Origin: a virus
Length of the DNA stretch: 60,040 nucleotides
Reading direction: 5' to 3' (one strand)
Virus record (IMG/VR): IMGVR_UViG_3300044765_000177
Coordinates: 1 to 60,040 of that record
Program-made: the position numbers and the translations under genes
The notes under the pieces: model-generated
Database searches by the model: none
Told to the model about the DNA's origin: nothing
The model's input: the letters and a program-made list of their open reading frames with translations, nothing else
In this document: positions 1-60,040 of the stretch, piece after piece
Numbering within the stretch: the first letter of the stretch is position 1
Layout: the number at the start of each line of letters is the position of its first letter

Positions 1-23
1 GGCCCCGGCGCTGGGCCGGGGCC
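1..23 (-). terminator. GC-rich hairpin downstream of the 43..867 gene (9-bp stem GGCCCCGGC/GCCGGGGCC, 5-nt loop)
   Basis: Perfect inverted repeat read directly; lies just 3-prime of the minus-strand stop at 43. Confidence 0.6.
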
Positions 24-26
24 GCG
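1..26. repeat. Terminal direct repeat: identical to window positions 60015-60040
   Basis: ggccccggcgctgggccggggccgcg occurs at both window ends; consistent with an overlap from a circular or terminally redundant genome. Confidence 0.9.
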
Positions 27-42
27 GGGTGGTGCGGGTGGG

Positions 43-867
43 TCAGACGTCGGCGGTGTAGGCCTGCTTGGAGGCCATGCGGCCGCCGGTGGCGGCGACG
101 GCTTCCTGGATGCCGCCGTGGCGGGTGTGGATGTTCTGGGAGGACTGGGCGGCGATGGCCGCGTTGTCGACGGCGGCCTTCTGCAGGGCCTGGGCGGCGG
201 CGAGGGCGGCGGCGTACTGGTCGCGGAGGGCGGCGAGTTCCTGGAGGGTGCCGTCGTCGTCGCCGAACTCCAGGGCGGTGGCCTGCTCGATGGCGGCCTC
301 GATGGCGGCGAGCTGGTCGGCGGCGCGCTGGGCGATGGCGCCGGCTTCTTCGGCGGTGACGCCGGCTTCGGAGGCGAAGCGGGCGACGGCGGCCTTGAGG
401 GTGTTGACGCCGGTGATCTCGGGGATGGTGGCGAGGGCCATGGGTGCTCCTGTGGTGTCGGGTCGGATGTCGTTCTTGATCAGGACGAGGTTGCGGGTGC
501 CGGCCTCGGAGGGCGCCGGGTCGGGGTGGTGCGGTTCGGTGGTCTTCTCGGGGGCCGGGGCGGGCGCCGTCTGCGCCTCGGTGGCCTCGACGGGTTCGGG
601 CTGGGGGCGGCGGAAGCGTTCGGCGGCCCGCTTCTTCGCCTTGGGCCACTCGCGCTTGAAGCCGTCGAGGAACGCCTTGGTGAAGGTGCCGGCCGCGGTG
701 GCCGCGGTCGCGGACCAGGCGGCGAGCTTCGCGCCGGTGCGGCGGCCGTTCTTCTTGGCGGCCTTCCGCATCCGCTTCTTGTGCTTGGCGGACACCTCAC
801 CGAAGGCGCTTTCGAGGCCGCGGGCGCACGCCCAGGCGATCGCGAAGAGGAGGATCAGTCCGAGCAC
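43..867 (-). CDS. Membrane-anchored hypothetical protein (Spd-like position): N-terminal TM helix, basic region, Pro-rich linker, Ala-rich helical C-terminus; 274 aa
   Basis: ORF track; GTG start at 867, directly after the stop of the upstream gene at 869; non-junk composition. Confidence 0.75.
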   Translation of the reverse strand: MLGLILLFAIAWACARGLESAFGEVSAKHKKRMRKAAKKNGRRTGAKLAAWSATAATAAGTFTKAFLDGFKREWPKAKKRAAERFRRPQPEPVEATEAQTAPAPAPEKTTEPHHPDPAPSEAGTRNLVLIKNDIRPDTTGAPMALATIPEITGVNTLKAAVARFASEAGVTAEEAGAIAQRAADQLAAIEAAIEQATALEFGDDDGTLQELAALRDQYAAALAAAQALQKAAVDNAAIAAQSSQNIHTRHGGIQEAVAATGGRMASKQAYTADV

Positions 868-868
868 G

Positions 869-1336
869 TCAGCCCCCCATCAGCCACATGACGAGGGCGC
901 CGACCTGGGTGGCGATGACGCCGAGCCCGGTGGCCGCTGCGTCGCCGAGCGCGCCGGGGATCATCACGGTCAGCGGCGGGGCGAACGCGGCGAGGAGCAG
1001 GGTGCGGGTCTGCACACCGGTCATGAAGTCGCTGACCAGCCACAGCAGCACGGCCAGCGCCAGCGCGAACATGATCCCGAAGCCGGTCCACTGGCCGGCC
1101 AGGTCGTCGACGAGGCCGTCGACGGTGGTGGTGGCGTTGTTGATCCACCGACCGACCGGGGTGGACACGAGACCGATGGACGCGGTCAGGACGAGCAGGA
1201 CTTGGATCTGCGGGCCGCGGATCTTCGCGGCGAAGCGATTGATCCAGGGGAGCCGGTCGGCGACATACAGCACGCCGGCCGCTCCCAGGCAGGTTCCGCC
1301 GGTGGCGGCGGAGATCCCTGCGTCGATGACGGGCAT
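869..1336 (-). CDS. Polytopic membrane protein, Spd-like (155 aa)
   Basis: ORF track; ATG at 1336 preceded by AAGGGGG; several hydrophobic helices. Confidence 0.8.
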   Translation of the reverse strand: MPVIDAGISAATGGTCLGAAGVLYVADRLPWINRFAAKIRGPQIQVLLVLTASIGLVSTPVGRWINNATTTVDGLVDDLAGQWTGFGIMFALALAVLLWLVSDFMTGVQTRTLLLAAFAPPLTVMIPGALGDAAATGLGVIATQVGALVMWLMGG

Positions 1337-1738: not shown

Positions 1739-1783
1739 TCCGGGTCTGCTTGCCGGGTCTGCGAACGTTCCGCTCACCGGGTC
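1739..1783 (-). promoter_or_regulatory. Three same-orientation GACCCGG(A/C/T) repeats in an intergenic gap; candidate clt / TraB recognition repeats
   Basis: Plus strand TCCGGGTC 1739-1746, GCCGGGTC 1752-1759, ACCGGGTC 1776-1783; the first two lie in a 10-nt direct repeat CCGGGTCTGC. Confidence 0.45.
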
Positions 1784-3062: not shown

Positions 3063-3329
3063 TCAGGTGGTGGGCTTGGGGAGGGCGGTGCAGCCAATGG
3101 CGTGGTCCTGCGCCCAGTCGAGGATCTGGTCGCGGTAGGGAAGGTCGTGGCTCTTGGTCCGGCCGCAGGGCTGGCAGGTGGCGGTGACGCGGCCGGCCGC
3201 TTCGGTGAGGTCGACGGTGGCCCGGTAGTCGTCGTAGCGAAGTCCGATGCGGGTGAGGAAGCGGGCGACGACGCCCTCGGGCCATGCCTCGGCGGGGGCC
3301 TGCGGGGCGGTCTCGATGGTGGTGGTCAT
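3063..3329 (-). CDS. Small Cys-containing hypothetical protein, paralog of 3620..3943 (88 aa)
   Basis: ORF track; shared AWPEGVVAR(F/Y)L N-terminal motif and WAQxHAxxCxAxPxPT C-terminal motif. Confidence 0.8.
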   Translation of the reverse strand: MTTTIETAPQAPAEAWPEGVVARFLTRIGLRYDDYRATVDLTEAAGRVTATCQPCGRTKSHDLPYRDQILDWAQDHAIGCTALPKPTT

Positions 3330-3350
3330 GACGGTGGGTGTCCTTCCGGG

Positions 3351-3581
3351 TCAGGCGGCGGCGGGGGTGGCGACGAGGGCGTGGATCTCGTCCATCAGCG
3401 GCGACTCGTCGGGGTTCGCGGCGTCGTACATCTCGATCTCGTAGAGCGTCCAGTCGCGGGCGATCACGTCGCCCCGCCGGACGTCGGCCAGGTAGTCCGC
3501 GACGTACTTGGCGCGGACGTCCGCCGCGGCGGAGTCGAACGGGTCGCCGGCCGGGACCAGGGTCAGGGTGGGAGCAGACAT
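3351..3581 (-). CDS. Small acidic hypothetical protein (76 aa)
   Basis: ORF track; ATG 3581 with upstream purine-rich RBS. Confidence 0.7.
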   Translation of the reverse strand: MSAPTLTLVPAGDPFDSAAADVRAKYVADYLADVRRGDVIARDWTLYEIEMYDAANPDESPLMDEIHALVATPAAA

Positions 3582-3619
3582 GGGGGTGCCCTTTCAGGGG
3601 TGCGTGGAAGGTGGTGGGG

Positions 3620-3943
3620 TCAGGCGGTGGGGCGGGGCATGGCGCGGCACTTCTCGGCGTGGGCCTGCGCCCACTCGCGGGCCTGCGGCGTCGAGGTCTT
3701 GCCGCCCTCGTCGAAGCTGTCCTGCGACTGGCCGAACTCGGCGGCGTAACCGTCCCAGCCCCAGTCGACGGTGTGGGTGGCCGGGCAACCGCCGCACATC
3801 ACGTGGGTCTCGGTCGGCTCCGTCCGGCCGTGGAAGCCGGAACGCTCGGTGACGTCGACGAACGCGCCGCCGACGCTCAGGTAGCGAGCGACAACACCCT
3901 CGGGCCAGGCGGCGTGCTGGGCGGTGCTGGCGGAAGAAGGCAT
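3620..3943 (-). CDS. Small Cys-containing hypothetical protein, paralog of 3063..3329 (107 aa)
   Basis: ORF track; ATG 3943 preceded by GAGGAG; shared motifs with 3063..3329. Confidence 0.8.
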   Translation of the reverse strand: MPSSASTAQHAAWPEGVVARYLSVGGAFVDVTERSGFHGRTEPTETHVMCGGCPATHTVDWGWDGYAAEFGQSQDSFDEGGKTSTPQAREWAQAHAEKCRAMPRPTA

Positions 3944-3986
3944 GACGGATCTCCTCAGCTGGTCAAGCAGGAATGGGAAGTGGGAG

Positions 3987-4031
3987 CCGCGGGCGGGGGC
4001 CGTGGGGGATTTCGGTCATCCCCGCCCGCGG
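3987..4031 (-). terminator. 12-bp perfect-stem hairpin (CCGCGGGCGGGG / CCCCGCCCGCGG) after the 4044 gene
   Basis: Inverted repeat read directly. Confidence 0.55.
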
Positions 4032-4043
4032 CGGTCTGGGGTG

Positions 4044-4268
4044 CTACTTCGGCAGCGGGTGCTCGCTGCGCTGGTTGACGAGGTGCAGCTTCCGGCGCAG
4101 CTCGCCGTAGTTGACGAAGCCGGTCGCCAGCCGCTGCCCGGTCGCCGGGTCGGACACCGACACCGTCAGCAGCCGCTCACCGTCCACCGGCTCGGCCACC
4201 CGGGCGATCACCTCGTCCGCCTTCTGCTGCGCGGCAGCCATCCGGGCCAGGTCGTCGGCCACGGTCAC
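4044..4268 (-). CDS. Hypothetical protein (74 aa), start refined to GTG 4268
   Basis: The N-terminal 40 codons of track ORF 4044..4388 have poor third-position G+C; GTG at 4268 overlaps (GTGA) the stop of a high-GC3 micro-ORF. Confidence 0.65.
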   Translation of the reverse strand: MTVADDLARMAAAQQKADEVIARVAEPVDGERLLTVSVSDPATGQRLATGFVNYGELRRKLHLVNQRSEHPLPK

Positions 4269-4381
4269 CACCCCCGCACCTGCAGGGCGCGCCGGCGGGC
4301 GGCGGATTCGCGGGGCAGCGGCGGCAGGTCCGGCGTCGGCTCGACGCGGCGGAGGTCGACCGGCTTCTTCTCGGCGCTCAT
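4265..4381 (-). CDS. 38-codon micro-ORF (MSAEKKPVDLRRVEPTPDLPPLPRESAARRRALQVRGW), coupled on both sides
   Basis: ATG 4381 overlaps the upstream stop (ATGA); its TGA overlaps the downstream GTG; very high third-position G+C. Confidence 0.5.
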   Translation of the reverse strand: MSAEKKPVDLRRVEPTPDLPPLPRESAARRRALQVRGW

Positions 4382-4815
4382 GCGACACCGCCCAGCTTCG
4401 CGATGACCTTGCGGACGGCGCCGAGGCGGTCGATGGGGTCCTGGCCGGCGGGGACGACGATGGTGCGGCGGCCGACGGTCGGGTCGTGCACGGCCTGCAG
4501 GTGGGGGCGCAGCCTCTCGTCGAGGCTGCTGGTGTCCCACTCCTCCAGCTCGACGTCGTGCTCGGCGAGGAGGGCGGCCAGCGTGTCGCGGGCCTCCTGC
4601 TCGTCGGCCAGGCGCTCCACCTCGGCCAGCCGGCCGCGGAAGGCAGCGACCATGTCGCGCAGACGGGCCGGGCTGACCTCGGCGAAGTCGGACAGTTGGG
4701 GGCTCGTGGAGACGACGAGCGACAGGGCGCCGGTCTCGTCGTCCGCCATCACCTCGGCGTCGAGGGTGAGGCTGATCGAGCGCACCGCGGAGTGCGCTAG
4801 GTTGGCGTTAGCCAT
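4378..4815 (-). CDS. Hypothetical protein, first gene of the leftward Spd-like operon (145 aa)
   Basis: ORF track; clean acidic/helical composition. Confidence 0.75.
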   Translation of the reverse strand: MANANLAHSAVRSISLTLDAEVMADDETGALSLVVSTSPQLSDFAEVSPARLRDMVAAFRGRLAEVERLADEQEARDTLAALLAEHDVELEEWDTSSLDERLRPHLQAVHDPTVGRRTIVVPAGQDPIDRLGAVRKVIAKLGGVA

Positions 4816-4965
4816 CAGGGTCTCCCTATCAGGTACCTGATTGGTTAGGGCCGGCCTGCGAGGTAGGAGTCGCGGTGTCCGGCCCGATCTTCATTTGTGC
4901 AGCGCCCGCGGACCGAGTCCGGTAGGAGTGGGCACAGCTAGTAGGCCGCCTCGCGGTCGGCTTGG

Positions 4966-5065
4966 CGTCTACTTTGTTGCAGGACCACCATGGCACGGGC
5001 GCCAGTGCCGCCGCAACAAAGTGGACGAAGAATCTTGCTGCCCGTCTAGTCGGTGGACATCCACC
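4966..5065. promoter_or_regulatory. Divergent control region: 10-bp inverted repeat ACTTTGTTGC (4971-4980) / GCAACAAAGT (5013-5022) and palindrome GGTGGACATCCACC (5052-5065)
   Basis: Repeats read directly; located between divergent genes 4815(-) and 5084(+). Confidence 0.5.
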
Positions 5066-5083: not shown

Positions 5084-5332
5084 ATGGCAGCCAAGACCTC
5101 GACACTCAAGGGAACCCAGGAAGCGCAGTGGCTGCGCCGACTGGACAGAGCCACCGCCGCACACGAGAAGACCCGCCAGCGGCTCGACGACCTCGTGGCC
5201 GACGCCCGTGAAGCCGGCGTGTCCCTCACCGCCATCTCCGAGCACACCCCGTACAGCCGCGAGTGGGTGCGGACCATCGCCGCCCGCGTGCAGGCGGCCC
5301 GATCGGCAGAGGGCGACGCTCCCCAGGAGTGA
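5084..5332 (+). CDS. Small HTH-like DNA-binding protein (82 aa)
   Basis: In-frame ATG 5084 within track ORF 4841..5332; upstream part of the ORF is Arg/Pro junk. Confidence 0.65.
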   Translation: MAAKTSTLKGTQEAQWLRRLDRATAAHEKTRQRLDDLVADAREAGVSLTAISEHTPYSREWVRTIAARVQAARSAEGDAPQE

Positions 5333-5432
5333 CCCTTGGTGTCGACTTTGCATGCTCTGGAGTCAACCGGCGCCACAACGAAGCTGCCATGACCGACCGA
5401 TGCAGCGCCGGTGCACCCGGAGTGCAGTCGTG

Positions 5433-6107
5433 ATGCAGAACGCCCGAGACGAGCGGATAAGGGGCGCCAAAGTGGACGTCGTGACGTGGACGGGCCGGGA
5501 AGCGTGCGCCCTGCAGCAGGCCCTCCGCATGACGAACGACGACTTCGCCGACCACCTCGGCGTCGCGGTCCGCACGGTGGCGAACTGGCACTCCTCCCCC
5601 GGCACCGTGCCGCGCACCGAGATCCAGTCCGCCCTCGACACCGCCTACGAGAGGTCATCACCCTCGGTGCAACGACGCTTCAGCATCCTCACCCGCCCCG
5701 CCTCGGCCGCCGTCGAGGCCCAAGCCCTCCGCGTGGCCATCGCCATCGTCCTCAAGGGCGACGACGTACTCCTCGTCTGCCGCCGCGGCGAGGGCGAGAT
5801 CCGCTGGCAATTCCCGGCCGGCATGGTGAAGCCCGGCGCCGACCCGGCCACGGTCGCCGTGCAGGAGACCCACGGCGAGACCGGCGTGCACTGCACCGTC
5901 CGCGAGCAGCTGGGCGAGCGCGTCCACCCCAAGACGGGCGTCGTCGCCTCGTACTACCTCGCCGACCACCTCGCGGGCGAAGCGTCCAACCGGGACCCAC
6001 TGGAGAACGTCGACGTCACCTGGGCGCCGCGCTCGGCGCTGACCCGGTTCATCCCCGCAGACCAGATCTTCCCGCCCGTCCTGAGCGCCCTGGAGGTAGC
6101 CGCATGA
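5433..6107 (+). CDS. XRE-like HTH fused to a Nudix-fold domain with a degenerate Nudix box (224 aa); Pif-like
   Basis: ATG 5433 within track ORF 4962..6107; HTH LRMTNDDFADHLGVAVRTVANW; Nudix box reads GMVKPGADPATVAVQETHGETGV, with E->A, R->Q and E->G at conserved positions. Confidence 0.8.
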   Translation: MQNARDERIRGAKVDVVTWTGREACALQQALRMTNDDFADHLGVAVRTVANWHSSPGTVPRTEIQSALDTAYERSSPSVQRRFSILTRPASAAVEAQALRVAIAIVLKGDDVLLVCRRGEGEIRWQFPAGMVKPGADPATVAVQETHGETGVHCTVREQLGERVHPKTGVVASYYLADHLAGEASNRDPLENVDVTWAPRSALTRFIPADQIFPPVLSALEVAA

Positions 6108-6553
6108 CCGACACGACCACCGAGAAGCCCGGCATCTCCGCCGCGATCATCGTGGTCGGCGAGCGCGTGTTGATGGTGCGGCGCCGCATCTCCGAGGGCG
6201 AGCTGATGTGGCAATTCCCCGCCGGCGCCATCGAGCCGGGCGAGACGCCAGAGGAGGCGGCCGTGCGGGAGACCCTCGAAGAGACCGGCCTCGAGGTCAA
6301 GGCCATCCGGCTGCTGGGCGACCGGGTTCATCCGAAGACCCAGCGGGTCATGTCGTATACGGCCTGCGAGGCGGTGGCCGGTGAGGCGCGCGTTGCCGAC
6401 GCCGAGGAGCTGACGCAGATCGCCTGGGTGACGCACCGCGACCTGCCGGACTACGTGCCTTACGGGATCTTCGACAAGGTGCAGGAGTACCTGGACGCCA
6501 CCCTGACCCGGTCGCCGGACTACATCACGATCTTGTCGGAGCCGGTCGAGTAG
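6104..6553 (+). CDS. Nudix hydrolase with a canonical Nudix box (149 aa)
   Basis: ATG 6104 overlaps the upstream stop (ATGA); box GAIEPGETPEEAAVRETLEETGL matches Gx5Ex7REUxEExGU. Confidence 0.9.
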   Translation: MTDTTTEKPGISAAIIVVGERVLMVRRRISEGELMWQFPAGAIEPGETPEEAAVRETLEETGLEVKAIRLLGDRVHPKTQRVMSYTACEAVAGEARVADAEELTQIAWVTHRDLPDYVPYGIFDKVQEYLDATLTRSPDYITILSEPVE

Positions 6554-6571
6554 ACGCCCAGACGCACGGAT

Positions 6572-6600
6572 GCCCCCCGCACCGGTTGGGTGCGGGGGGC
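6572..6600. terminator. Bidirectional hairpin between convergent genes (CCCCCCGCACC GGTT GGGTGCGGGGGG)
   Basis: Perfect inverted repeat read directly between 6553(+) and 6611(-). Confidence 0.7.
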
Positions 6601-6610
6601 TTCGTCATGT

Positions 6611-6823
6611 TCAGCGGCGTCTGGTCGCCCAGCGTGCCCGCATGAGGGCGAGTTGGAGGCCGAGGCGGGTGCGCGCGTGGCCGGTGGCTGCTTCGAGGCC
6701 GCCCCGGTAGGCGATCCACGTCCAGGGGCCGGTGCCGTAGATTTCGGCGTCGAAGTCGTTGGTGGGGGCCAGCGGCTGGGCAAGGCTCCAGGTGCCGTCG
6801 GGGTTCTGGCGGGCGGTGTTCAT
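6611..6823 (-). CDS. Hypothetical protein (70 aa)
   Basis: ATG 6823 preceded by GGGAGAA; remainder of track ORF 6611..7141 is Arg/Pro junk. Confidence 0.7.
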   Translation of the reverse strand: MNTARQNPDGTWSLAQPLAPTNDFDAEIYGTGPWTWIAYRGGLEAATGHARTRLGLQLALMRARWATRRR

Positions 6824-7062
6824 GGGGTTCTCCCTGGGTGTGTGTGTTCGATTCCCCGGCAGTCGAGGTTGTCGGCTTCCATGTCGATGGCGGCTGCGGC
6901 GGCTTCGAGGCTGGCGTCGGGGTCGTCGGCGAGGGTGCGGCAGGATTCGGCGATGGCGCGGAGGAGTGCGACGACGGCGTCGACGCCGAGGTAGGCGTGC
7001 CCGTCGGTGGCGGTGACGATGGGAAGTTGGCTGGAGGCGTGGTCGAGGGGCTCGTCGGTCAT
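6820..7062 (-). CDS. Acidic hypothetical protein (80 aa)
   Basis: ATG 7062; stop overlaps the next start (ATGA). Confidence 0.7.
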   Translation of the reverse strand: MTDEPLDHASSQLPIVTATDGHAYLGVDAVVALLRAIAESCRTLADDPDASLEAAAAAIDMEADNLDCRGIEHTHPGRTP

Positions 7063-7232
7063 CGGCGCTGCCGCCGCTTGAGGTTGAGAAGCTGCGCTTC
7101 GGCGAGGAGGCCCCACGCTTCCCGGTTGGCGGCTCGTGCACGGTCGGCTGACTGCCTAGTGCTTCGGGCGCTCCAGGCGGCGAAGGCGAGGGCGGCCAGG
7201 GAGACGGCGAGGGCGATCAGCTTGAGGGTCAT
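7059..7232 (-). CDS. Small single-TM membrane protein (57 aa)
   Basis: ATG 7232 in track ORF 7059..7832; hydrophobic N-terminal helix; coupled to neighbours. Confidence 0.6.
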   Translation of the reverse strand: MTLKLIALAVSLAALAFAAWSARSTRQSADRARAANREAWGLLAEAQLLNLKRRQRR

Positions 7233-7837: not shown

Positions 7838-7859
7838 GGCGGGGCTCCTTGCGGGTGCT

Positions 7860-9544: not shown

Positions 9545-9647
9545 GGATGCCTCTTCCGGGCTCGTAGTCGGGTCTGTGGCGGCCTGTGGGCCGGGGGTTG
9601 GGGTTCGGGTCGTCGGGGCGGCTGTTCGGCCGTCTACGGCCCGCCTG

Positions 9648-10073: not shown

Positions 10074-10141
10074 GATCGGCTCCTGTGTCGGTACGGTGGT
10101 CGGCAGGCCCGCCCGGCTACGACCCGGGCGGGCTGCCGCGT

Positions 10142-13273: not shown

Positions 13274-13353
13274 GTGGTCTCTTCTCTCGGTAGCGCTGGC
13301 GGGATCGGGGTGTGCTGGGTGTCAGGGCCGGTCGCGCGGCCGGCGGGGCGCGG

Positions 13354-43724: not shown

Positions 43725-43736
43725 CGCGCACCCCCG

Positions 43737-44545: not shown

Positions 44546-44555
44546 AGTTGAGGGG

Positions 44556-48773: not shown

Positions 48774-48827
48774 GGTCCGGCCCTCCTCCTCGGATTACCG
48801 GCCGGACCTCGCCGTGCCGGGGATCAA

Positions 48828-49334: not shown

Positions 49335-49389
49335 CGCGGCCGACTCCTTCCGATAGCCCCGCCCTCGCGGCGGGGACACTCAAGGCCGG

Positions 49390-51787: not shown

Positions 51788-51796
51788 CCCCTCGCA

Positions 51797-53536
51797 TCAG
51801 AATCCGACCGCCACCCGGCTCTTCGCCTTCGGCCGCCGCAGGTATCCGTCCAGACCCATCACCGTCGCCGCGATCCCGTCGATGCGGGCCTGGCTCTTGC
51901 GCCGGTCCGGCTTCGTGGGCCGGTAGTTGTCGTTGCCGTCCGCGATCGTCTCCACGCAGCCGGCCATCCACCGCAGGATCGGATGCCCGCCGTGCCGGAA
52001 CCTCTGCTCCAGCAGTAGCCGGTCCAGCTCCTTGCATGCGGGCGACAGCCCGAGGAACGTCTGGCTGATCGGCGTCACCTTCACGCCGCGCCGTGTCTCC
52101 CGGTCCACGTTCTGCACGAGCTGCCCGGCGAACATCCGGTCGTAGCCGATCCACTGCACGTCGAAGTGCTTGCAGTCCGCCAGCACTTGCTTCTCGATCG
52201 CGTCGTAGTCGATCGCATCGCCCTCGGTCAGCTTCAGGAAGCCCTCACGGGCCCACTGCGCCAGCGGCACCTGCAGATGCCGCTGCAGATCCTCGAGCCG
52301 CTCCGACGGCAGCCAGAACCTGGAGACCAGCTCGACCTCGACGCCAGGCTGCTTCGACTCCACCGCCAGCACCCAGGCGCTGAGGTCCGACACTGCGGAC
52401 AGGTCCAGGCCGCCCCACGCCCGTCGGCCCCTCAGCGTCTCCGCGTCCACCATTCCCGCCACCCGGTCCCAGGACCGGACGTCGATCCAGCGGGTCGACG
52501 CCTTCTCGCGGATGTTCAGCGACAGCCGAAGGAACGTCGGAAAGTACGAGGGCGTAGCCTGCGCCTTGCCCGCCTCGCGCCGCAGATACGCCAGCGTCGG
52601 CGACGTGCCGAGGCCCGGGTTCGCGCGGCGCCAGGTCCGCTCGTCGAACGGGTCATCGGTCTCATCTGCGGCCCAGATCACGCCGTAGTGCGCCGGATCC
52701 TCCACGACGTGCTCGGCGACCTTGCGGGTGTAGCTGTGCTTCTCGTCGTAGATCGAGCCCTCTTGCGCGTCATCCGCGGTCGTGATGTACACGATCAGCG
52801 GCTGATCCCGCGCACCGGTGCCCGTCTCGATCGCGTCGATCAGGTCCCGGCTCTTGTGGACGTGGACCTCGTCGATCACCGCGCCCGAGACGTTCAGGCC
52901 GTGCGCCGTCTCCGCGATCCGCGACAAGGCCCGGAAGACCCCTCCCGTCCGCGGCACCCGGATCACCGAGGTGAGCACCTCGGCGCGGCCCTTCACCGCC
53001 TTCGACGTCTGCGCCATCCGCTTCGCGTCGTCGAACACCCGCTTGGCCTGCTCCAGCGAGCCGGCCGCCGCATACACCTCGGCACCCGTCTCGCGGTCCG
53101 CGAGCAGCAGCGTCAGGCCGATCCCCGAGGAGAGCGTGCTCTTGCCGTTCTTCCTGGGAATCTCGATCCAGCACGAGCGCACCACCCGCACCGGCCGGTC
53201 CAGCTCCGGGTCATGCCACAGCCAGCCGAACACCGGCAGAATCACCCACAGCTTCTGCCAGCCGGCCAGCCGCAGGAACGTGCCGCCCCACCGGCCCTTG
53301 GTGTGCTTGAACGACTCGATAGCCCGCAGCGCCCGCCGGGCGGCATCCACGTCGAACCAAGCACCCGCCTGCTCCGGCATCTGGAACGCCGACACCAGCG
53401 GCCGGGACAACAGAGCGTCGGCGATCTCCTCGTCCGGCATACCCAGCGCGTGCAAGGCCGCCCGGGGAACGGGCAGACCCTCCTCACGGTCCTGCGCGGA
53501 GAGCTGCTCAGTCGAAGGGGTCGTCTTCGTCGCCAT
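51797..53536 (-). CDS. Terminase large subunit (579 aa; alternative GTG 53545)
   Basis: Walker A-like EIPRKNGKST, VIDEVH; ATG 53536 after GGAGGG. Confidence 0.9.
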   Translation of the reverse strand: MATKTTPSTEQLSAQDREEGLPVPRAALHALGMPDEEIADALLSRPLVSAFQMPEQAGAWFDVDAARRALRAIESFKHTKGRWGGTFLRLAGWQKLWVILPVFGWLWHDPELDRPVRVVRSCWIEIPRKNGKSTLSSGIGLTLLLADRETGAEVYAAAGSLEQAKRVFDDAKRMAQTSKAVKGRAEVLTSVIRVPRTGGVFRALSRIAETAHGLNVSGAVIDEVHVHKSRDLIDAIETGTGARDQPLIVYITTADDAQEGSIYDEKHSYTRKVAEHVVEDPAHYGVIWAADETDDPFDERTWRRANPGLGTSPTLAYLRREAGKAQATPSYFPTFLRLSLNIREKASTRWIDVRSWDRVAGMVDAETLRGRRAWGGLDLSAVSDLSAWVLAVESKQPGVEVELVSRFWLPSERLEDLQRHLQVPLAQWAREGFLKLTEGDAIDYDAIEKQVLADCKHFDVQWIGYDRMFAGQLVQNVDRETRRGVKVTPISQTFLGLSPACKELDRLLLEQRFRHGGHPILRWMAGCVETIADGNDNYRPTKPDRRKSQARIDGIAATVMGLDGYLRRPKAKSRVAVGF

Positions 53537-54017
53537 CGTCGCCACCCTCCGGCGGCGTCAGCCGGCCACGCGCGGACGGTGACAGGCCCAGCTCGCCGAT
53601 GTACCGGGCCAGTTGCTGCCGGTACTGGCCCACCACCGTCGTCGCGCCGTTCTTCTGCCAGCCCCGTTCGCCCCTCATCAGCAGCCCGTGCAGGGAGATT
53701 TCCCGCTCGCACTGGTCGATCCGGGCGACACAGATGCAGTAGTCGGTGACGGTCTGGGTGTCGACCTCGGCCAGGCCTGCCGTGAACTTGAGCACCGGGA
53801 CCACGCGGCGCCACTCGCGGCGGGCGATCTCCCGGCAGCGCGCGTTGATCTCCCGCTGCCGGTCATCGCCGCGGACGGCCGGGAACGATTCGAGCCAGTT
53901 CGGCTCGGCCAGCTCCGATGGGGGGAGCTTGACGCCCTCGCGGACAGGCCGGCGGTTCGGGTTGCCCTCGCGGACGATCTGGAGAGGGGGCTTCGGCTTT
54001 CTCCCGGCGACTGCCAC
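53508..54017 (-). CDS. Terminase small subunit, P27-like (169 aa; track start 54068 has poor codon bias)
   Basis: GRKPKPPLQIVREGNP...; GTG 54017. Confidence 0.75.
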   Translation of the reverse strand: MAVAGRKPKPPLQIVREGNPNRRPVREGVKLPPSELAEPNWLESFPAVRGDDRQREINARCREIARREWRRVVPVLKFTAGLAEVDTQTVTDYCICVARIDQCEREISLHGLLMRGERGWQKNGATTVVGQYRQQLARYIGELGLSPSARGRLTPPEGGDDGDEDDPFD

Positions 54018-54813: not shown

Positions 54814-55146
54814 TCAGACCCGGATGGCTTGGAGGGTGACCTCGGCGCTGGACACGTCGAAGTTGAGGGTGGTGCCGTAGTCGGTGGGCGGGAACGGGCC
54901 GAGCACCTGCGTCTCGCCGGCGGGGATGGACTCCTGCCTGGTGGGGCTGGTGAGTCCGTCGACGGTGCGCGCCGTCTGGAAGGTGATGGTGCGCGCCGTG
55001 CTGGCGCCGTTGGTGTTCTTGGCGATGAGGATGATGCGGCCGTCGTTGGCGATGGCGTTGCCGTTGGTGGCGTCTCCGGCGACGGCGGCGGGCAGTACGG
55101 CGCCCGCGCGGATGGCCTGGACGGCGTTGATCGTGGTGCGGGCCAT
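54814..55146 (-). CDS. Hypothetical beta-rich protein (110 aa)
   Basis: ORF track; ATG after AGGAG. Confidence 0.7.
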   Translation of the reverse strand: MARTTINAVQAIRAGAVLPAAVAGDATNGNAIANDGRIILIAKNTNGASTARTITFQTARTVDGLTSPTRQESIPAGETQVLGPFPPTDYGTTLNFDVSSAEVTLQAIRV

Positions 55147-55155
55147 GGGCTGCTC

Positions 55156-55443
55156 CTAGGTGACGGTGAGGATCCCGGCTCGGCGGACGATGTCCTCGGC
55201 TCCGGGCGGGTCGACGCGCACCCACACCTTGTAGTCGCCTGCGGTGAGGACGAGGTCGGCGCCGGGTCCGATGAGGATGCGGGCGGCCCCGTCGGCCCAG
55301 GCCGCGGTCTGCCACTCGTCCGCGGCCGGGTTGGCGCGGTGGGCGACGACGGCGATGTGGACGGGCGCGCCGGCCAGGTCGACACCGGCGGGGGCGGTGA
55401 CGGGTACGTGCAGGTATTCGGTGCTGCTGGCGGGGATCACCAT
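55156..55443 (-). CDS. Hypothetical Ig-like beta-rich protein (95 aa)
   Basis: ATG 55443 or GTG 55440 overlapping the upstream stop. Confidence 0.65.
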   Translation of the reverse strand: MVIPASSTEYLHVPVTAPAGVDLAGAPVHIAVVAHRANPAADEWQTAAWADGAARILIGPGADLVLTAGDYKVWVRVDPPGAEDIVRRAGILTVT

Positions 55444-56417
55444 GGCGCACCCACCTCCCACGCGCTGGGCTGGAGCTCGCCGACGGTGTAGACCGCGCCG
55501 TGCGGGGCGCCGACGGTGATGTCGATGTCCGTGTCCGGGCCTGCTGCGGCGAGCGGGCGCGCGGTGGCCTGCTCGACGGCCGGGCCGAGGACAGCGGTCT
55601 TGGCGCCCACGAGGGGCCGTGCGGTCTCAACGGCAGCAGCCGAGCTGAGGCTTCGGCTCAGCGCCGCCGTGAGGGCCTGCGCGCTCTCCGCCTCGGCTGC
55701 CGGGGCGAGCAGCGCGGTCTTCGTCCCCGCGAGGCCCTGCGCGGTCGCGGTCTCCGTGGCGATGCCGAGGACGGCAATTTTGCTGCCGACCAGAGCCTGC
55801 GCGGCCTCAACGGCTCCCGCGGTTCCGAGCTGGAGCGCCTTCGCCCCGGTGAGGGGCTGAGCGGTCTCGGCGCTGGCCGCGAGGGTGAGCGTCGCACCGG
55901 CGGTGATGTCGGCGGCGGCGAAGTTGTCGTAGCGGACGGCGGCGGACGACTCGGAGCGGATGCCGACGCTCGTGCCGGTGGGGACGTCGGTGTTGGTGAC
56001 GTTGACCCGTTCGACGCCGTTGACGAAGCCGCGGACGGTCGAGCCGACGGCCTGGACGCGCGCCACGTCGCCGGGGGCCGCAGCCGCCGTGTAGGAGCCG
56101 ATGACGAGGAAGCTGCCGCCGACGACCGCGAAGAGGTCCCAGGTGGAGCCGTTGTTTCGCCACAGGTAGCCCTGGCTGATGTTGGCGTTGCCCCTGCACC
56201 ACACGCCCTGGCTGACTGCGGCGGTGGAGACGATGGTGACCTGCGCGTAGTGGTCGCTGCTCGCCATGGCCGTGGCCGCGCGAAGGATGATCGTGCCGCC
56301 TGCGGAGCCCGGCGAAAGCTGCTGGGAGACGATCGACCAGTCGCCGGACACCTCCACCCAGCCGGCGCCGAGGTCGGTGGAGTCGGGGCGGTTGAAGTCG
56401 TCGGTAAAGCTCGCCAC
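55437..56417 (-). CDS. Protein with an N-terminal ConA/LamG-like lectin-type domain and a C-terminal array of ~19-aa Ala-rich repeats (326 aa)
   Basis: ORF track; repeats of the form AxExAQxLxGxKxAxL, about six copies. Confidence 0.75.
   Translation of the reverse strand: MASFTDDFNRPDSTDLGAGWVEVSGDWSIVSQQLSPGSAGGTIILRAATAMASSDHYAQVTIVSTAAVSQGVWCRGNANISQGYLWRNNGSTWDLFAVVGGSFLVIGSYTAAAAPGDVARVQAVGSTVRGFVNGVERVNVTNTDVPTGTSVGIRSESSAAVRYDNFAAADITAGATLTLAASAETAQPLTGAKALQLGTAGAVEAAQALVGSKIAVLGIATETATAQGLAGTKTALLAPAAEAESAQALTAALSRSLSSAAAVETARPLVGAKTAVLGPAVEQATARPLAAAGPDTDIDITVGAPHGAVYTVGELQPSAWEVGAPW
55487..55850 (-). repeat. In-frame tandem coding repeats (~57 nt unit, about six copies)
   Basis: Seen in the translation of 55437..56417; boundaries approximate. 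Confidence 0.6.
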
Positions 56418-56432
56418 GACGCCCCCAGGCCG

Positions 56433-56879
56433 CTATGCCGCCGAGGTGCTGCGGTAGAAGTCGGAGATCGACAGGGTGAAGTTGCTGCCGTCGGGCGTCC
56501 AGGTCAGGTCGTGCTTGGTGAGGGGGATCAGGTCGGCGTCGGTGCCCGTGGTGGTGTCGGGGTCGTAGCAGATGACCACTGCGCCGACCGGGTTGCCGGT
56601 GGGCGCGGTCCAGGTGACGTCGGCTGCGTCGACGGCGACGCGGTCGTTGGTGTCGTCGACGGTGACCGTGACACCCGACAGGGTCTTGCGGCCGACGGTG
56701 GTCTGCTCGTTCGTCGTCCCGGCGACCACGTCGGCGAGGGTGTCCTTGTCGCGCAGCACCGCGTCCGACTCCAGCCCGCTGGCCTCCAGCGCGACGAGGA
56801 CGAGGCCGTCGTTGGCGGCGGGCAGGGAGGCGTAGTAGGCGACCATGCCCAACGCCCGGTTGAAGACGATGTTCGCCAT
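56433..56879 (-). CDS. Hypothetical beta-rich protein (148 aa)
   Basis: ATG 56879 within track ORF 56433..57182. Confidence 0.7.
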   Translation of the reverse strand: MANIVFNRALGMVAYYASLPAANDGLVLVALEASGLESDAVLRDKDTLADVVAGTTNEQTTVGRKTLSGVTVTVDDTNDRVAVDAADVTWTAPTGNPVGAVVICYDPDTTTGTDADLIPLTKHDLTWTPDGSNFTLSISDFYRSTSAA

Positions 56880-56947
56880 CGGGGCCTCCTCGGCGGCGGG
56901 TTGGTGGAGCCCCGCCGCCCGGACGGGGTCGACGGGCGGCGGGGAGC

Positions 56948-57175
56948 TCAGGCGGCGCGGGCGCCTTCGGGCAGCGGCGGTGCCTGTCCGGGCGCGAGCT
57001 GCTCTCGCGTGTACTCGTCGCGGGGGGCTTTGATCAGGTCGAACACGTAGTAGCGGGCCTGTCGGCCCGTGCCGGTCTTCCGGATGCGGCCCTCGGAGGC
57101 CCAGCGCCAGATAGTGCCCACGGGCACGCCCGCGTAATAGGCTGCATCGGCGGCGGTGACGTAGCCGGGAGGCAT
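56948..57175 (-). CDS. Excisionase-family (HTH_17) DNA-binding protein at the head of the late operon (75 aa)
   Basis: VTAADAAYYAGVPVGTIWRWASEGRI; ATG 57175 after GGGGAGGTG. Confidence 0.75.
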   Translation of the reverse strand: MPPGYVTAADAAYYAGVPVGTIWRWASEGRIRKTGTGRQARYYVFDLIKAPRDEYTREQLAPGQAPPLPEGARAA

Positions 57176-57311: not shown

Positions 57312-57500
57312 TCAGCGGTCGAGGCGCCGCGTGACGACGGCGCCGCCAACGACGGCGATCACGATGTACACCGCCAGCCCGATCAACATGCGGCCGGTGC
57401 TCGGATCTCCGGGCAGCGCGATCAGGGCGAGAGCGATCACACCGAGGATGAGCGGGGCGAGAATCGTGTACAGCCAGTACAGGGAGTGGTAGCGCTCCAT
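57312..57500 (-). CDS. Small two-TM membrane protein (62 aa)
   Basis: ATG 57500 after AAGGAG; hydrophobic helices. Confidence 0.7.
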   Translation of the reverse strand: MERYHSLYWLYTILAPLILGVIALALIALPGDPSTGRMLIGLAVYIVIAVVGGAVVTRRLDR

Positions 57501-57511
57501 CGGGTGCTCCT

Positions 57512-57952
57512 TCAGTGCCGGTGGTTGGTCTTGGCGAAGAGCCCGGTCGTCTTGCTCTGCACGGTCCGCTGGTCGACGGGCCCGTTGTAGTGGTGGTGGT
57601 GCACGTCCGGGACCGCGGTGGCCGTCCGGCGCACGAGCCGGGCCAGGGCGAGGATCGGCACGGCGACCGCAGCAGGGGCCGCGCAGATGAGGCCGATGAC
57701 GGTGGGGTCGGCGTGCTCGGAGGCGACCAGGATCGCCGTGGCGACGAGGCCGGGCGGCACGGATGCCAGGCTGCAGTACATGACGGCCCGGCTGATCTCG
57801 GTGGCCTTCTGCGACATGGCCGGCGCTCCGGGCTGCTGAACGGGGGGCGTCGGGCCGTAGGCCGGCAGGGGGGTGTCGTCGCGGTAGGAGGTGGGCGGGC
57901 ACATGGCCTCTTCCACGGCGGCGACGAGCTTCGGGTCAGGCTGGACGGTCAC
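57512..57952 (-). CDS. Membrane protein directly downstream of the translocase gene, Spd-like position (146 aa)
   Basis: GTG 57952 after AGGAG; two hydrophobic helices; the rest of track ORF 57512..58687 overlaps the translocase gene and is junk. Confidence 0.7.
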   Translation of the reverse strand: MTVQPDPKLVAAVEEAMCPPTSYRDDTPLPAYGPTPPVQQPGAPAMSQKATEISRAVMYCSLASVPPGLVATAILVASEHADPTVIGLICAAPAAVAVPILALARLVRRTATAVPDVHHHHYNGPVDQRTVQSKTTGLFAKTNHRH

Positions 57953-57960
57953 GGGGGCTC

Positions 57961-59973
57961 CTAGGCTGCTTCGGCGAGGTCGGCGGGGGTGTCTGCGTGG
58001 TCGGGGTGGGCCCAGATGCCGCGGTCGACGGCGACAGCCAGGTCTTTGGCCTTGAGGCGGGTGAGGGCGTTCTTCACGGCGCTGACGGTGAGTCCGGTCT
58101 CCTGGGCGATGGTGTTGCGGCCGACGGGGCGGCCCCGTTCGGCGAGGAACGCGGCGACACGCTCGTCGGTGCCGGGGGGCGCTTCGGCTGCGATGGCAGC
58201 GGCGGCCCGGGCGATGGGGTCGCTGGACGGAACCATGCGGGCTGGGGCGGTGGGGCCATCGGCGAAGGCGTCGTCGGGCAGCACGGGGGTTTCGCCGCGG
58301 AGGCGGGCGGCGAGCCGGTCGAGGCGCTCGTGGTATGCCTTGCCGCAGACGGCGGCGGCGGACGGCTCGATGGTGGGGGTGTCGCCGGTGGTGGCCCAGT
58401 GGGCGGGGTCGCGGTCGAAGTAGGCGCGGAACTGGGCCTGCCGGTTGTCGGGGCCCTTGATGTAGCCGAGGCCGGCGGTGGACGTCTTGTCGGGCCAGTA
58501 CATGGGCAGCTGGCTGGGGTTGACGTCCCAGCCGGGCAGGCCGATGGAGTCGGTGAGCGTGGACGCGGTGCGGAACATGACGGTGTTGCCGGACTGGGCC
58601 TGCTCGCGGATGTCGGTGGACTCGGGGGCGTTGCCGAACATGTTGGCCTTGGGACCCTGGAACACGAGGCGGATCTTGATGCCGCACTTGCGGGCCATCT
58701 GGATGATCTCCAGGACGAGCGCGGGGGCGCCCGGCAAGTTGAGGACGCGGTGCGCCTCGTCGATGGTGACGGAGATCAGCGGGTCGGGGTCGCCGACGAC
58801 GAAGTGGTCGCGGCCGCGCAGCCGGCGGCCCTTATGGTCGGTCCACTCCATCATCGAGTAGCGGGCGGACCGCTCGTACATGACGTTGCGGACGGCGTGG
58901 AGCATGGCGAGGCCGCCCTGGGCGGTGTCCTCGTACCAGTCGACGGCCTCACGCCAGCGGGGCAGGGACTGTCCGCCCTGCGGGTCGCACACCCAGGAGA
59001 CGATGCCGTTGTGGCGTTCGGTGCCGAGCAGCATGTCGAGGAACCGGGACTTGCCGCCGTCGGTGGCGCCGTAGACGACGGTGTGGACGGGCCCGGACGG
59101 CTTCCAGAACGCGTAGTGGGCGGGGGCGCCGTCGTAGAACAGGCCGACGGTGGCCTGCCCGGTGGCGGTGTTGAGGATCTGGGGGCCGGGGTGGTCGACG
59201 GGCTTCTGCAGCGGGTTGCGGTCGAACACGGCGATGATGGCGCGCTTCGCGGACTGGCCGGTCGCCTTCTCGATCTGCAGCATCTCCTCGGGCAGGTCGA
59301 GGGCGCCGGCGATGTCGGCGGCGGCGGAGTGGGCCTGACGCCAGTTCCTGCGGCAGATGATGACGCCGGTCCAGCCGTAGCCGGTGGTGACGACGTCGAC
59401 GAGCTGGGAGCCGGGCAGGGGCCCGTCGGCGCAGGCGACGTCGTCCTGCCAGAGCTGCAGTTGCTTGCTGAGGGAAGGGGCCGGGGCGGCGGTCTTCTTG
59501 CCGCGGCGCCACCAGTAGATGCCGTGGCCGACGCCCCAGGCGACGCTGAGGGCCGGGTAGGGGCTGTCGCCGATCTGGAGTCCGCCGGTGGCGGCCATGG
59601 CGGTGACGAGGCTGCCGCCGGTGGTGACGGCGGAGGCGGCGGCGAGGAAGTCGCGGCGGGCGGGGAGCCGGCGGCGTAGGCGCTTCTTGCCGATGCGGGG
59701 GTTGCAGTAGCCCCAGACGGCGGTGGCTGCGGCGCCGGTGGCGGTGGCGGCGAGGGCGGTCTTCCAGCCGTCGTCGGGTACGGCGAGGGCGCTGCCGGCG
59801 ATGGCCTGGGCGGCGGTGGCGTAGAGGGGGGCCATGCCGCGGCGGGTGCGGTAGGCGAGGCGCAGCGCGCGCCGGGCGGCCTTGGTCTTGGGGTTGCGGG
59901 AGGAGCCGCGCTTGCGGGTCGTCGCACGGTCGTCGGTGCCGTTGGTCTTCTCGACGGTGATGGTCTTCGGCAT
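57961..59973 (-). CDS. traB: FtsK/SpoIIIE-family dsDNA translocase with TraB-like architecture: N-terminal TM helices, ATPase, C-terminal wHTH (670 aa)
   Basis: Walker A GATDGGKS, Walker B VTIDEAH; C-terminal NTIAQETGLTVSAVKNALTRLKAKDL. Confidence 0.88.
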   Translation of the reverse strand: MPKTITVEKTNGTDDRATTRKRGSSRNPKTKAARRALRLAYRTRRGMAPLYATAAQAIAGSALAVPDDGWKTALAATATGAAATAVWGYCNPRIGKKRLRRRLPARRDFLAAASAVTTGGSLVTAMAATGGLQIGDSPYPALSVAWGVGHGIYWWRRGKKTAAPAPSLSKQLQLWQDDVACADGPLPGSQLVDVVTTGYGWTGVIICRRNWRQAHSAAADIAGALDLPEEMLQIEKATGQSAKRAIIAVFDRNPLQKPVDHPGPQILNTATGQATVGLFYDGAPAHYAFWKPSGPVHTVVYGATDGGKSRFLDMLLGTERHNGIVSWVCDPQGGQSLPRWREAVDWYEDTAQGGLAMLHAVRNVMYERSARYSMMEWTDHKGRRLRGRDHFVVGDPDPLISVTIDEAHRVLNLPGAPALVLEIIQMARKCGIKIRLVFQGPKANMFGNAPESTDIREQAQSGNTVMFRTASTLTDSIGLPGWDVNPSQLPMYWPDKTSTAGLGYIKGPDNRQAQFRAYFDRDPAHWATTGDTPTIEPSAAAVCGKAYHERLDRLAARLRGETPVLPDDAFADGPTAPARMVPSSDPIARAAAAIAAEAPPGTDERVAAFLAERGRPVGRNTIAQETGLTVSAVKNALTRLKAKDLAVAVDRGIWAHPDHADTPADLAEAA

Positions 59974-60014
59974 GGCGGCTGCTACTCCTGCGGTGGGTGA
60001 AGTCTCGGGGTGGC

Positions 60015-60040
60015 GGCCCCGGCGCTGGGCCGGGGCCGCG
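60015..60040. repeat. Terminal direct repeat: identical to window positions 1-26
   Basis: Same 26-mer as at the window start. Confidence 0.9.

Follow-up and report, generated by a model that had tools for sequence, protein, structure and literature searches.

A circular temperate Streptomyces siphovirus genome with a TraB/Spd-type cassette of probable plasmid origin

The virus record IMGVR_UViG_3300044765_000177 of IMG/VR is a stretch of DNA of 60,040 nucleotides (here called the window, and analysed over its whole length) with 71% G+C, in which a gene-calling procedure based on codon usage found ~93 genes, almost all of them on the minus strand. The window is the excised circular form, carrying attP, of a ~60.0-kb temperate Streptomyces siphovirus, and it holds between its early and late phage operons a cassette of genes centred on g93, a TraB-like translocase of double-stranded DNA (dsDNA). 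Comparison with related modules points to this cassette being a Tra/Spd module derived from a plasmid or an actinomycete integrative and conjugative element (AICE). We consider it likely, with a probability of roughly three in four, that the element is a temperate siphovirus with two routes of spread, one in virions and the other by transfer of dsDNA from hypha to hypha. As judged from the predicted genes, it has the content of pZL12 and pFP4, two plasmid-phages of Streptomyces, and shares its order from tra to terminase with pZL12. A preliminary description of the window had already placed virion and lysis genes together with transfer genes on one apparently circular replicon, which the evidence below bears out.

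The element encodes the small and large terminase subunits (TerS and TerL), a portal, an HK97-type capsid, tail and tape measure proteins, lysis proteins, a CI/Cro-like pair and an integrase with its attP, and it has integrated relatives; this is the gene set of a temperate tailed phage with the HK97 fold, complete as had been described, and virion, lysis and phage early genes account for ~60% of the genome. Along the minus strand the early and replication genes (22.8 to 6.6 kb) are followed by the cassette, which continues across the junction of the window ends into g93-g90, then by g89-g86 and by the late genes from TerS to lysis, with the lysogeny region in the gap where the two long runs of minus-strand genes end. 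The terminal 26 nucleotides of the window are identical (1-26 and 60015-60040), which gives a circular unit of 60,014 bp. This direct repeat marks the circular junction, and within it lie the arms of a GC-rich hairpin that separates g1 from g93 and has an 11-bp stem (-31.8 kcal/mol, z -2.4). Joining the ends produces the stop codon of g1, the 11-bp hairpin, an AGGAG ribosome-binding site and the start of g93, an arrangement that is contiguous in four relatives (L002, L024, L025 and L027).

The attP was found by comparison with integrated relatives. A search with the integrase, one genome per species, gave 13 Streptomyces loci, and in eight of the nine that were scanned for tRNAs a tRNA-Val(TAC) lies ~100 nucleotides past the integrase gene. 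Nucleotide homology between the integrated relatives and the window ends at 25668-25673, within tRNA-Val, and the attP core (25624-25668, minus strand) is identical to the 3' 45 nucleotides of tRNA-Val(TAC), from the anticodon loop to the 3' end, in keeping with the tRNA-type attP noted earlier. Because this segment matches the 3' part of the tRNA and homology stops inside the tRNA, the window represents the excised form. ARAGORN and Rfam detected no tRNA and no RNA family in the window, as expected for a tRNA fragment. The comparisons show the 3' end of tRNA-Val(TAC) to be the site of integration, with g46 as the predicted tyrosine integrase. Two of the loci that were fetched come from a single contig of Streptomyces sp. 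NPDC051315 (JBITEN010000001.1), on which 26.4 kb separate the g93 homologue (460226-462250, 88% identical) from the tRNA at 488637. The corresponding distance in the window, from g93 to the tRNA part of attP across the end junction, is 25.7 kb. Since the joined ends and this spacing match contiguous relatives, the circle is taken to be real and the cassette to lie deep inside the prophage.

The translocase g93 (57961-59973, minus strand; 670 amino acids) is predicted to have helices at its N-terminus, an FtsK-type motor, and a winged helix at its C-terminus. Its Walker A and Walker B motifs read GATDGGKS and TIDEAH, and residues G307, K308 and S309 as well as E406 are invariant among homologues. 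A profile built from 19 homologues matches EccC (2.5e-8), FtsK (6.3e-8) and also HerA in the PDB, and its C-terminus matches winged-helix domains. The AlphaFold2 model (predicted local distance difference test score 77.6) has the FtsK motor (6t8o) as its best Foldseek match (E 1.6e-13, TM-score on the target 0.63), and the second-best is TcpA of pCW3 (6o1w; E 5.9e-13), an FtsK-like coupling protein of conjugation. In hhalign comparisons g93 aligns with the FtsK/SpoIIIE protein (TraB) of pFP4 over 343 columns (98.4% probability) and with pZL12-71, the FtsK-like protein of the pZL12 tra region, over 428 columns (90.4%) that include the winged helix. The latter domain occupies residues ~600-655 of g93, is a confident helical domain in the model and aligns with the C-terminus of the pZL12 Tra protein. 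By fold and profile comparison g93 is thus a predicted FtsK/TraB-type motor with a C-terminal winged helix. Its family comprises 656 representatives (50% clusters) at E≤1e-30, the entire phage-borne clade falling into a single one of them, and the clade is a divergent one that is typical of linear plasmids and annotated as 'hypothetical' or 'wHTH protein'.

The cassette lies on one strand, as had been described, and that strand is the minus strand; it comprises, in order, g4, g3, g2, g1, g93 and g92. The SpdB-like g4 (1893-2984) combines 3-4 N-terminal membrane helices, three hydrophobic segments above the threshold and one weaker helix, with a C-terminal helix-turn-helix (HTH) domain of the HTH_SpdB_C family (PF27079, precomputed annotation), which is the combination expected of an SpdB2-type protein, and the HTH_SpdB_C domain is also present in g4 of the relatives. 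The identification of g4 as a DUF2637-like protein, which had been put forward before, is rejected: it has no match to PF10935 at E≤1 while the plasmid gene at the same position matches at 4.4e-33, and hhalign of the g4 family against DUF2637 proteins gave 25.7%. Downstream of g4 lie g3 (1468-1701, 77 amino acids), which is 59-75% identical in the relatives and 38-41% in the plasmid or AICE modules L026, L028 and L004, and g2 (869-1336), a 155-amino-acid Spd-like protein with four membrane helices that is predicted to be integral to the membrane. A g2 homologue of 154-157 amino acids with 39-55% identity is found at the same position in the modules L004, L005, L026 and L028. The Spd-like g1 (43-867), directly upstream of g93, has one membrane helix at its N-terminus, a segment rich in Lys and a coiled region rich in Ala, and shares 63-73% identity with its counterparts in phage relatives and 28-34% with those at the same position in plasmid or AICE modules. 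Immediately after the translocase gene follows g92 (57512-57952; phrog_19266, E 4e-44) and then g91 (57312-57500, 62 amino acids, 85% identical in L024), each with two membrane helices, so the small Spd-like membrane proteins of the preliminary description are indeed there. Homologues of g92 in pFP4 (53%) and pZL12 (pZL12-70, 40%) likewise stand directly after tra; g92 is restricted to such phage-type elements (the relatives, pFP4 and pZL12-70) and absent from the plasmid or AICE versions of the module that were examined, and it may serve the Tra system as an adaptor specific to phages. Divergent from the cassette is a unit of three plus-strand genes (g11, g12 and g13, 5084-6553) with the Nudix genes that had been pointed out: g12 (5430-6107), in which weak HTH matches at the N-terminus (NCBIfam E 0.01-0.09, under the threshold) accompany the Nudix domain, and g13 (6104-6553). 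Both are candidates for Pif-like conjugal immunity, and the pair recurs in L002, L024 and L027. A PADLOC search also matched both to the candidate defence family PDC-S07 (g12 with E 3.8e-8, g13 with E 1.4e-17). A Pif function has been described for Nudix proteins (PMC2440964).

A tblastn search with g93 found relatives on 168 actinomycete plasmids (26-39% identity) and none among 50,697 phage records, which supports the earlier grouping of the translocase with plasmids and AICEs rather than with phage-only proteins. Three of the plasmids were inspected: a 96-kb linear plasmid from end to end, the 292-kb plasmid of S. rimosus over a 22-kb stretch and a 58.6-kb Kitasatospora plasmid over its first 50 kb. 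All three have a module with the order DUF2637/SpdB-type gene, small gene, g2-like gene, one or two g1-like genes, translocase and small genes, where the g2-like membrane protein has 155 amino acids, or 184 on the Kitasatospora plasmid, and where the latter encodes a hypothetical protein at the DUF2637/SpdB position. A divergent GntR gene lies upstream of the module on two of them, and the annotation of the inspected sequence lists neither virion nor lysis genes. The AICE-like contig L026 encodes a 53%-identical g93 homologue together with a GntR regulator, WhiB and a DnaB/DUF3987 replication gene, and the order g3-g2-(g1)-g93 is kept both there and on linear plasmids, none of which has phage genes in the part that was inspected. 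Because plasmid relatives share the gene order and g4 carries the C-terminal HTH of SpdB, the cassette is best read as a module of plasmid or AICE descent.

In Streptomyces assemblies there are 69 clusters (at 90% identity) of near full-length g93 homologues with 657-681 amino acids and 74-88% identity, some of which are on contigs of 56-65 kb and others in chromosomes. Five of these relatives (75-88% identity) were examined, among them the near-identical pair L002 and L003, and all have genes at the positions of g4, g3, g2, g1, g93 and g92, the one at the g4 position in L027 being not detectably homologous. In L002 and L003 the cassette is followed by an HNH gene, after which the contig ends; in L024, L025 and L027 it is followed by terminase and portal genes and by a capsid or scaffold gene. 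The head modules differ among the relatives and are of three or more types (one with a 648-amino-acid portal and an S78 protease, one with an SPP1-type portal, and others), and the best conserved block among them is the core of the cassette from g4 to g92, flanked by the variable small genes g5-g10 and g86-g91. The ratio of nonsynonymous to synonymous substitution (dN/dS) of g93 is 0.28-0.43, probably an overestimate given the constrained G+C content of third codon positions, and the ratios for g2, g3 and g4 are also well below 1. In L025 a full GntR+UTRA regulator, divergent from the cassette, replaces the Nudix pair and thereby creates the classical kil-kor layout. Intact reading frames, low dN/dS and a cassette that is the best conserved part of genomes with different head modules argue that it is neither a recent insertion nor a decaying remnant and that it is a stable, selected part of the genome; the possibility that 57.3-60.0 plus 0-6.6 kb had been inserted recently is therefore not upheld. 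The TraB and DUF2637 proteins of the pFP4 type are also nearly absent from cultured-phage collections.

Apart from these relatives, a pZL12-like region was seen at positions 5279-19262 of the 92,418-bp contig L032 (GCA_042733155.1, JBHWGP010000027.1), which encodes a Nudix protein, an SpdB-sized gene product, small proteins and a translocase of the g93 family (36% identity). Its translocase gene lies 5.6 kb upstream of a large terminase gene of the pZL12 type (phrog_38), a second and independent link between the TraB clade and packaging genes.

Alignment of the g4-g3 spacers of the relatives revealed the three elements TGACCCGGT, AGACCCGGC and AGACCCGGA within 44 nucleotides on the tra strand. 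They correspond to three direct copies of GACCCGG, followed by T, C or A, at 1740-1783 (minus strand) in the g4-g3 intergenic region. In their core these copies match 5'-GACCCGGA-3', the recognition sequence of pSVH1 TraB, which occurs in clusters (PMC5133688), and the clt regions of such systems hold direct 8-bp repeats that are read by the cognate TraB (PMC4447253). GACCCGG is present 44 times in the window compared with an expectation of 32 +/- 5, and 1740-1783 is the sole triple cluster; a cluster of this kind arose in two of 400 second-order Markov simulations. It is conserved in L002 and L025. The cluster is a reasonable candidate for clt, to which g93 would bind. No array of 8-mer repeats was disclosed at the 3' end of g93, and over the whole cassette k-mer clustering, repeat finding and the k-mers common to the five relatives yielded only GC-rich words due to codon bias. 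The clt of pSVH1 is located at the 3' end of traB, while the candidate described here lies between spdB and g3.

The TraB/Spd systems of the Streptomyces plasmids pSVH1, pIJ101 and SCP2 consist of an FtsK-like hexameric dsDNA pump whose C-terminal winged helix reads the 8-bp repeats of clt, SpdB2 with four membrane helices, and small Spd operon proteins under GntR-type control (PMC4447253, PMC5133688). By analogy it is proposed that the excised circular dsDNA would be bound at clt, for which 1740-1783 is the best candidate, by the C-terminal winged helix of hexameric g93, which would then pump the unprocessed DNA into a neighbouring hypha. The SpdB-like g4 and the small membrane proteins may work together with g93 and pass the DNA across the septal cross-walls of the recipient, where it would integrate at tRNA-Val, and the divergent Nudix pair might act in a Pif-like manner by limiting transfer between cells that already carry the element. 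A more far-reaching proposal, which we put forward tentatively and at somewhat less than even odds, is that a widespread integrative lineage of Streptomyces prophages, absent from cultured-phage collections, keeps TraB/Spd as a selected part of its life cycle. In such 'conjugative prophages', which would need no plasmid maintenance, a divergent TraB that reads a GACCCGG clt would move the excised genome as naked dsDNA between hyphae and through the compartments of the mycelium. Streptomyces grows as a compartmented mycelium, and if the proposal is true, a phage genome that also moves by TraB-type dsDNA transfer would evade receptor-based resistance and could lysogenise or kill a colony from within.

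Several observations count against two routes of spread. At its N-terminus g93 has no segment with a Kyte-Doolittle hydrophobicity of at least 1.5, scans with Pfam, NCBIfam and PHROG gave it no assignment that passes the thresholds, and against Pfam FtsK_SpoIIIE (PF01580) it scores 14.1 bits where the cut-off is 24, so that the earlier assignment as an FtsK-like TraB translocase stands by fold and profile but not by this domain model. The failure in Pfam is not evidence against a Tra function, because pZL12-71 likewise has no Pfam FtsK_SpoIIIE hit. No GntR gene of the Kor/TraR type adjoins the cassette in the window: the stand-alone GntR regulators that had been listed as part of the transfer set exist (g49 and g50), but ~22-27 kb away and beside attP rather than beside tra. 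ParA and ParB were not found among the window proteins scanned, which leave out several small open reading frames, and for this reason nothing indicates that the element is maintained long term as a plasmid in the way of pZL12 and pFP4. In the present sample the g1-g93 junction is directly supported by the 26-nucleotide overlap alone, and a second, independent assembly of the same sequence ends at the g1/g93 hairpin. As to the candidate clt, L024 has a substitution in one of the GACCCGG copies and L027 is without a g4-g3 spacer; the cluster consists of three copies of a 7-mer in a generally conserved intergenic block and may equally be a promoter or operator, and the winged helix of g93 is too distant from that of pSVH1 TraB to predict the same specificity. 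The divergence of g93 has a practical side as well, since its clade is missed by a standard screen with Pfam FtsK_SpoIIIE, and surveys of AICEs or of 'conjugative' phages that use this model would probably overlook it.

An explanation that the preliminary description had already suggested and that is compatible with the two routes, though on balance unlikely, is that TraB and Spd serve the phage programme itself by moving replicating phage DNA across septal cross-walls, so that each infection or induction reaches many compartments. The position of the cassette on the same strand between the early genes and g86-g90/terS would fit this well, as would the missing GntR repressor beside it in the window, the occurrence of g92 in phage-type elements only and the recurrence of the tra-to-terminase order in pZL12 and the pZL12-like L032. 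Against it stand the separate divergent regulatory unit of the cassette, in which the Pif-like Nudix genes are found, the GntR+UTRA regulator of L025 in its kil-kor arrangement and the strong conserved hairpin between g1 and g93, and the tra locus of pZL12 was scored for conjugal transfer (PMC3583192). Use of g93 and its neighbours in defence or superinfection exclusion, with FtsK/HerA-type ATPase and Nudix enzymes acting together and no transfer involved, is brought to mind by the PDC-S07 matches of g12 and g13 and by the weaker matches of g93 to HerA-family ATPases. It is nevertheless very improbable, given that the best fold matches of g93 are FtsK and TcpA and not HerA, that its PADLOC match is marginal (mad8, E 2e-4, with no stretch that passes alone) and that g1, g2, g4 and g92 have none, and that the gene order is the one of plasmid modules with SpdB/DUF2637 proteins and a GntR regulator.

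The mosaic nature of phage genomes, the score of g93 under the Pfam threshold and the variability of the flanking small genes g5-g10 and g86-g91 could also be taken to mean that the cassette is inert cargo, a decaying plasmid or AICE remnant that recombined into a prophage. This is improbable in view of the near full-length intact reading frames in the 69 clusters of close homologues, the invariant ATPase motifs, dN/dS well below 1 for g93, g2, g3 and g4, and the retention of the cassette while head modules were exchanged. The least credible alternative, to which we assign hardly any weight, is an assembly artefact in which a prophage was fused with an adjacent AICE or plasmid, or a circle was falsely closed. 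The shortness of the overlap that closes the circle and the break of the second assembly at the same place speak for it. Yet the adjacency of g1 and g93 with hairpin, ribosome-binding site and start is contiguous in L002, L024, L025 and L027, the cassette lies ~26 kb inside the integrated relative at the spacing that the circle predicts and stands ahead of packaging or head genes in five independent relatives, an intact integrase with attP is possible only in the excised form, and the cassette has neither a second integrase gene nor a rep gene beside it; the possibility of a chimera, raised in the preliminary description, can be set aside on these grounds.

The closest known counterpart of the siphovirus with its Tra/Spd cassette is pZL12, or phage ZL12 (NC_013420, 90,435 bp), which also unites tailed-phage genes and a tra locus on one replicon and is the only deposited phage with a g92 homologue. 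On the same strand and in the same order as in the window it has a regulator, small genes including a Nudix-like one, membrane proteins, the FtsK-like Tra, the g92 homologue, terminase and portal; pZL12-71 is preceded by two larger genes, several small genes and a GntR gene in divergent orientation, and the terminase lies downstream. Conjugal transfer of pZL12 requires tra and two adjacent genes (PMC3583192). pZL12 is however 30 kb larger and is maintained as a plasmid with ParA/ParB (PMC4487206), whereas the window element integrates at tRNA-Val and partition genes were not found among its scanned proteins. It also differs in having the GntR gene beside tra and other terminase and head families, and there is no nucleotide similarity between the two. 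The 40,949-bp pFP4 (NC_017833) shares TerL (59.5%), TerS, portal and protease with the window element and has in addition a tyrosine recombinase, a GntR regulator, a DUF2637/SpdB-type gene, small genes, TraB and the g92 homologue (53%, 40404-40901). Unlike g93, its TraB is a canonical member of Pfam FtsK_SpoIIIE (E 1.5e-10), related to g93 at the profile level only, its tra unit does not precede terS but runs convergently towards the end of the tail genes, and it has ParA and a prim-pol/DUF927 replication module. Plasmid-phages, pFP4 among them, are described as conjugating as episomes and forming infective particles (PMC4170104).

With the plasmid systems pSVH1, pIJ101 and SCP2 the window element has in common the predicted motor and winged helix, an SpdB-like protein, small membrane proteins and the GACCCGG cluster, and differs from them in that g93 belongs to a divergent clade, no GntR gene is adjacent and the carrier is a phage. 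The AICEs pSAM2, SLP1 and pMEA300 resemble it in having a tyrosine integrase gene followed directly by attP in the 3' end of a tRNA, an HTH protein of excisionase type, a TraB-type gene, Spd, Nudix (Pif-like) proteins and GntR/XRE regulators, but with 10.9, 17.3 and 13.3 kb, respectively, they are far smaller than its 60 kb (PMC2440964). The window moreover has no Rep of the AICE type (RepSA, RepAM or prim-pol), its replication genes being of the phage O/loader/DnaB type. PhiNon1 of Nonomuraea gerenzanensis (59,257 bp), which has been called reminiscent of pZL12, is similar in size and G+C content and has been detected in circular form as well as inserted into the 3' end of a tRNA-Val gene (PMC5431353); here the tRNA is tRNA-Val(CAC) rather than TAC, and the host belongs to another genus. 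A megablast search against phages and plasmids yielded no close relative of the whole element, only the tail and head region of phage Kromp (~75% nucleotide identity) and fragments of dnaB.

In view of the precedents of pZL12 and pFP4, the same layout in pZL12 and the presence of at least 70 distinct close g93 homologues in Streptomyces assemblies, the earlier phrase 'rare hybrid' was overstated: the hybrid is real, but neither rare in kind nor new in concept. The first of these plasmid-phages was reportedly described by Zhong et al. in 2010 and the second by Chen et al. in 2012, and elements of this kind have been characterised and tested since 2010. The idea that Spd proteins spread phage DNA has also been published, in the form that SpdB2 homologues on actinophages might help phage DNA to spread (PMC4447253). 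What is new here is the integrative lineage, its absence from cultured-phage collections, the divergent Pfam-negative TraB clade and the candidate clt. The combination of phage and tra thereby extends beyond two odd plasmids to a common lineage of chromosomally integrating prophages, which offers a natural system in which to ask what tra/spd is used for, be it conjugation, spread of the phage within the mycelium, or both.

Upstream of g4 the cassette operon begins with the small leader genes g10-g5 (3063-4815, minus strand), which vary among the relatives. Two of them, g5 (3063-3329) and g7 (3620-3943), are paralogues that share the motif AWPEGVVAR(F/Y)L and conserved Cys/His residues and have no family match. 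Three non-coding segments of the cassette region are also worth recording. The g3-g2 spacer (1337-1467) is a strongly conserved block of ~130 nucleotides with the GC-rich palindrome CTCGCG..CGCGAG and is kept even in the AICE-like L026 (53% identity). The leader before g10 (4816-4900) contains a likewise strongly conserved block of ~70 nucleotides with a GGGCCGG/CCGGCCC hairpin that is present in all relatives, and the divergent g10/g11 promoter region has at 4966-5027 an operator-like 15-nucleotide inverted repeat, CGTCTACTTTGTTGC and GCAACAAAGTGGACG, with its arms 32 nucleotides apart, which lies in an insertion absent from the relatives. Scans for sigma-70 promoters and T-tract terminators were uninformative in DNA of 71% G+C.

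Between tra and terS lie g86-g90 (54814-57175, minus strand), of which g86-g89 encode proteins of phage families and g90 a MerR/excisionase-like HTH protein. The 326-amino-acid g88 (55437-56417) matches the virion structural protein family phrog_2804 in its N-terminal part, and its C-terminal half appears by eye to consist of Ala-rich repeats of ~16 residues (..A.AL.G.K.A.LG.A..). The head and packaging block (47823-54017) and the other late genes are on the minus strand as well. The block comprises TerS g84 (53508-54017; Terminase_4, E 1.4e-20), TerL g83 (51797-53545; TerL_ATPase and TerL_nuclease), portal g82 (50360-51787; SPP1_portal, precomputed annotation), protease g81, scaffold g80 and capsid g79 (47823-48773; Phage_capsid/HK97 family, E 1.9e-30). 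Tail and connector genes, including the major tail protein g71, extend over 34384-47121, with the tape measure protein g68 at 39309-43724 and the minor tail proteins after it in late order; protease, connectors, major tail protein, chaperones and tape measure protein are 53-72% identical to those of Streptomyces phage Kromp. The lysis cassette (32020-34327) consists of the endolysin g62 (33266-34327; phrog_1493) and the membrane proteins g61-g59, of which g61 and g59 are holin-like with three membrane helices each.

The replication module (10357-13273, minus strand) encodes an O-like initiator (g22), an IstB/DnaC-like loader (g21) and the DnaB helicase (g20), and the early region further encodes DnaN (g30) and a C5 methylase. 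The interior of g22 (12446-13273) contains at 12846-12985 five palindromic units of ~21 nucleotides, (A)GGGGTCCGGT-AGC/TTT-CGGACCCCT, with a spacing of 22-35 nucleotides. This iteron array, the strongest repeat array in the window, was considered as clt and rejected; because it lies inside the gene of the O-like initiator next to those of the loader and DnaB it has been assigned to replication and is probably the origin, arranged in the manner of lambda. Also in the early region, g27 (15979-16950) encodes a Gp3-like protein (PF18897, E 2e-41) of the phiC31 recombination directionality factor family; the integrase of the element is a tyrosine recombinase.

The lysogeny region contains the Cro-like g43, the CI-like g44, the integrase g46, attP, further HTH and GntR winged-helix proteins and the recombinase g55. 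The divergent switch (22692-23676) is formed by the small HTH gene g43 on the minus strand and by g44 (23137-23676; HTH_31/HTH_3) on the plus strand, followed on the plus strand by the integrase gene g46 (24196-25539; phrog_1, E 4.6e-30). Beyond attP lie g49 and g50 (27099-28074, plus strand), of which g49 (27099-27359) is a GntR winged-helix protein of 86 amino acids without an effector domain. In g50 (27466-28074) the domain order is unusual, a C-terminal GntR winged helix being preceded by an N-terminal part without a family match that by eye looks T5orf172/GIY-YIG-like. A second tyrosine recombinase, g55 (Phage_integrase, E 1.8e-7), is encoded together with an overlapping upstream reading frame (g55/g56, 29630-31065) ~4 kb from attP, and possible roles for it are dimer resolution or a second integration system.

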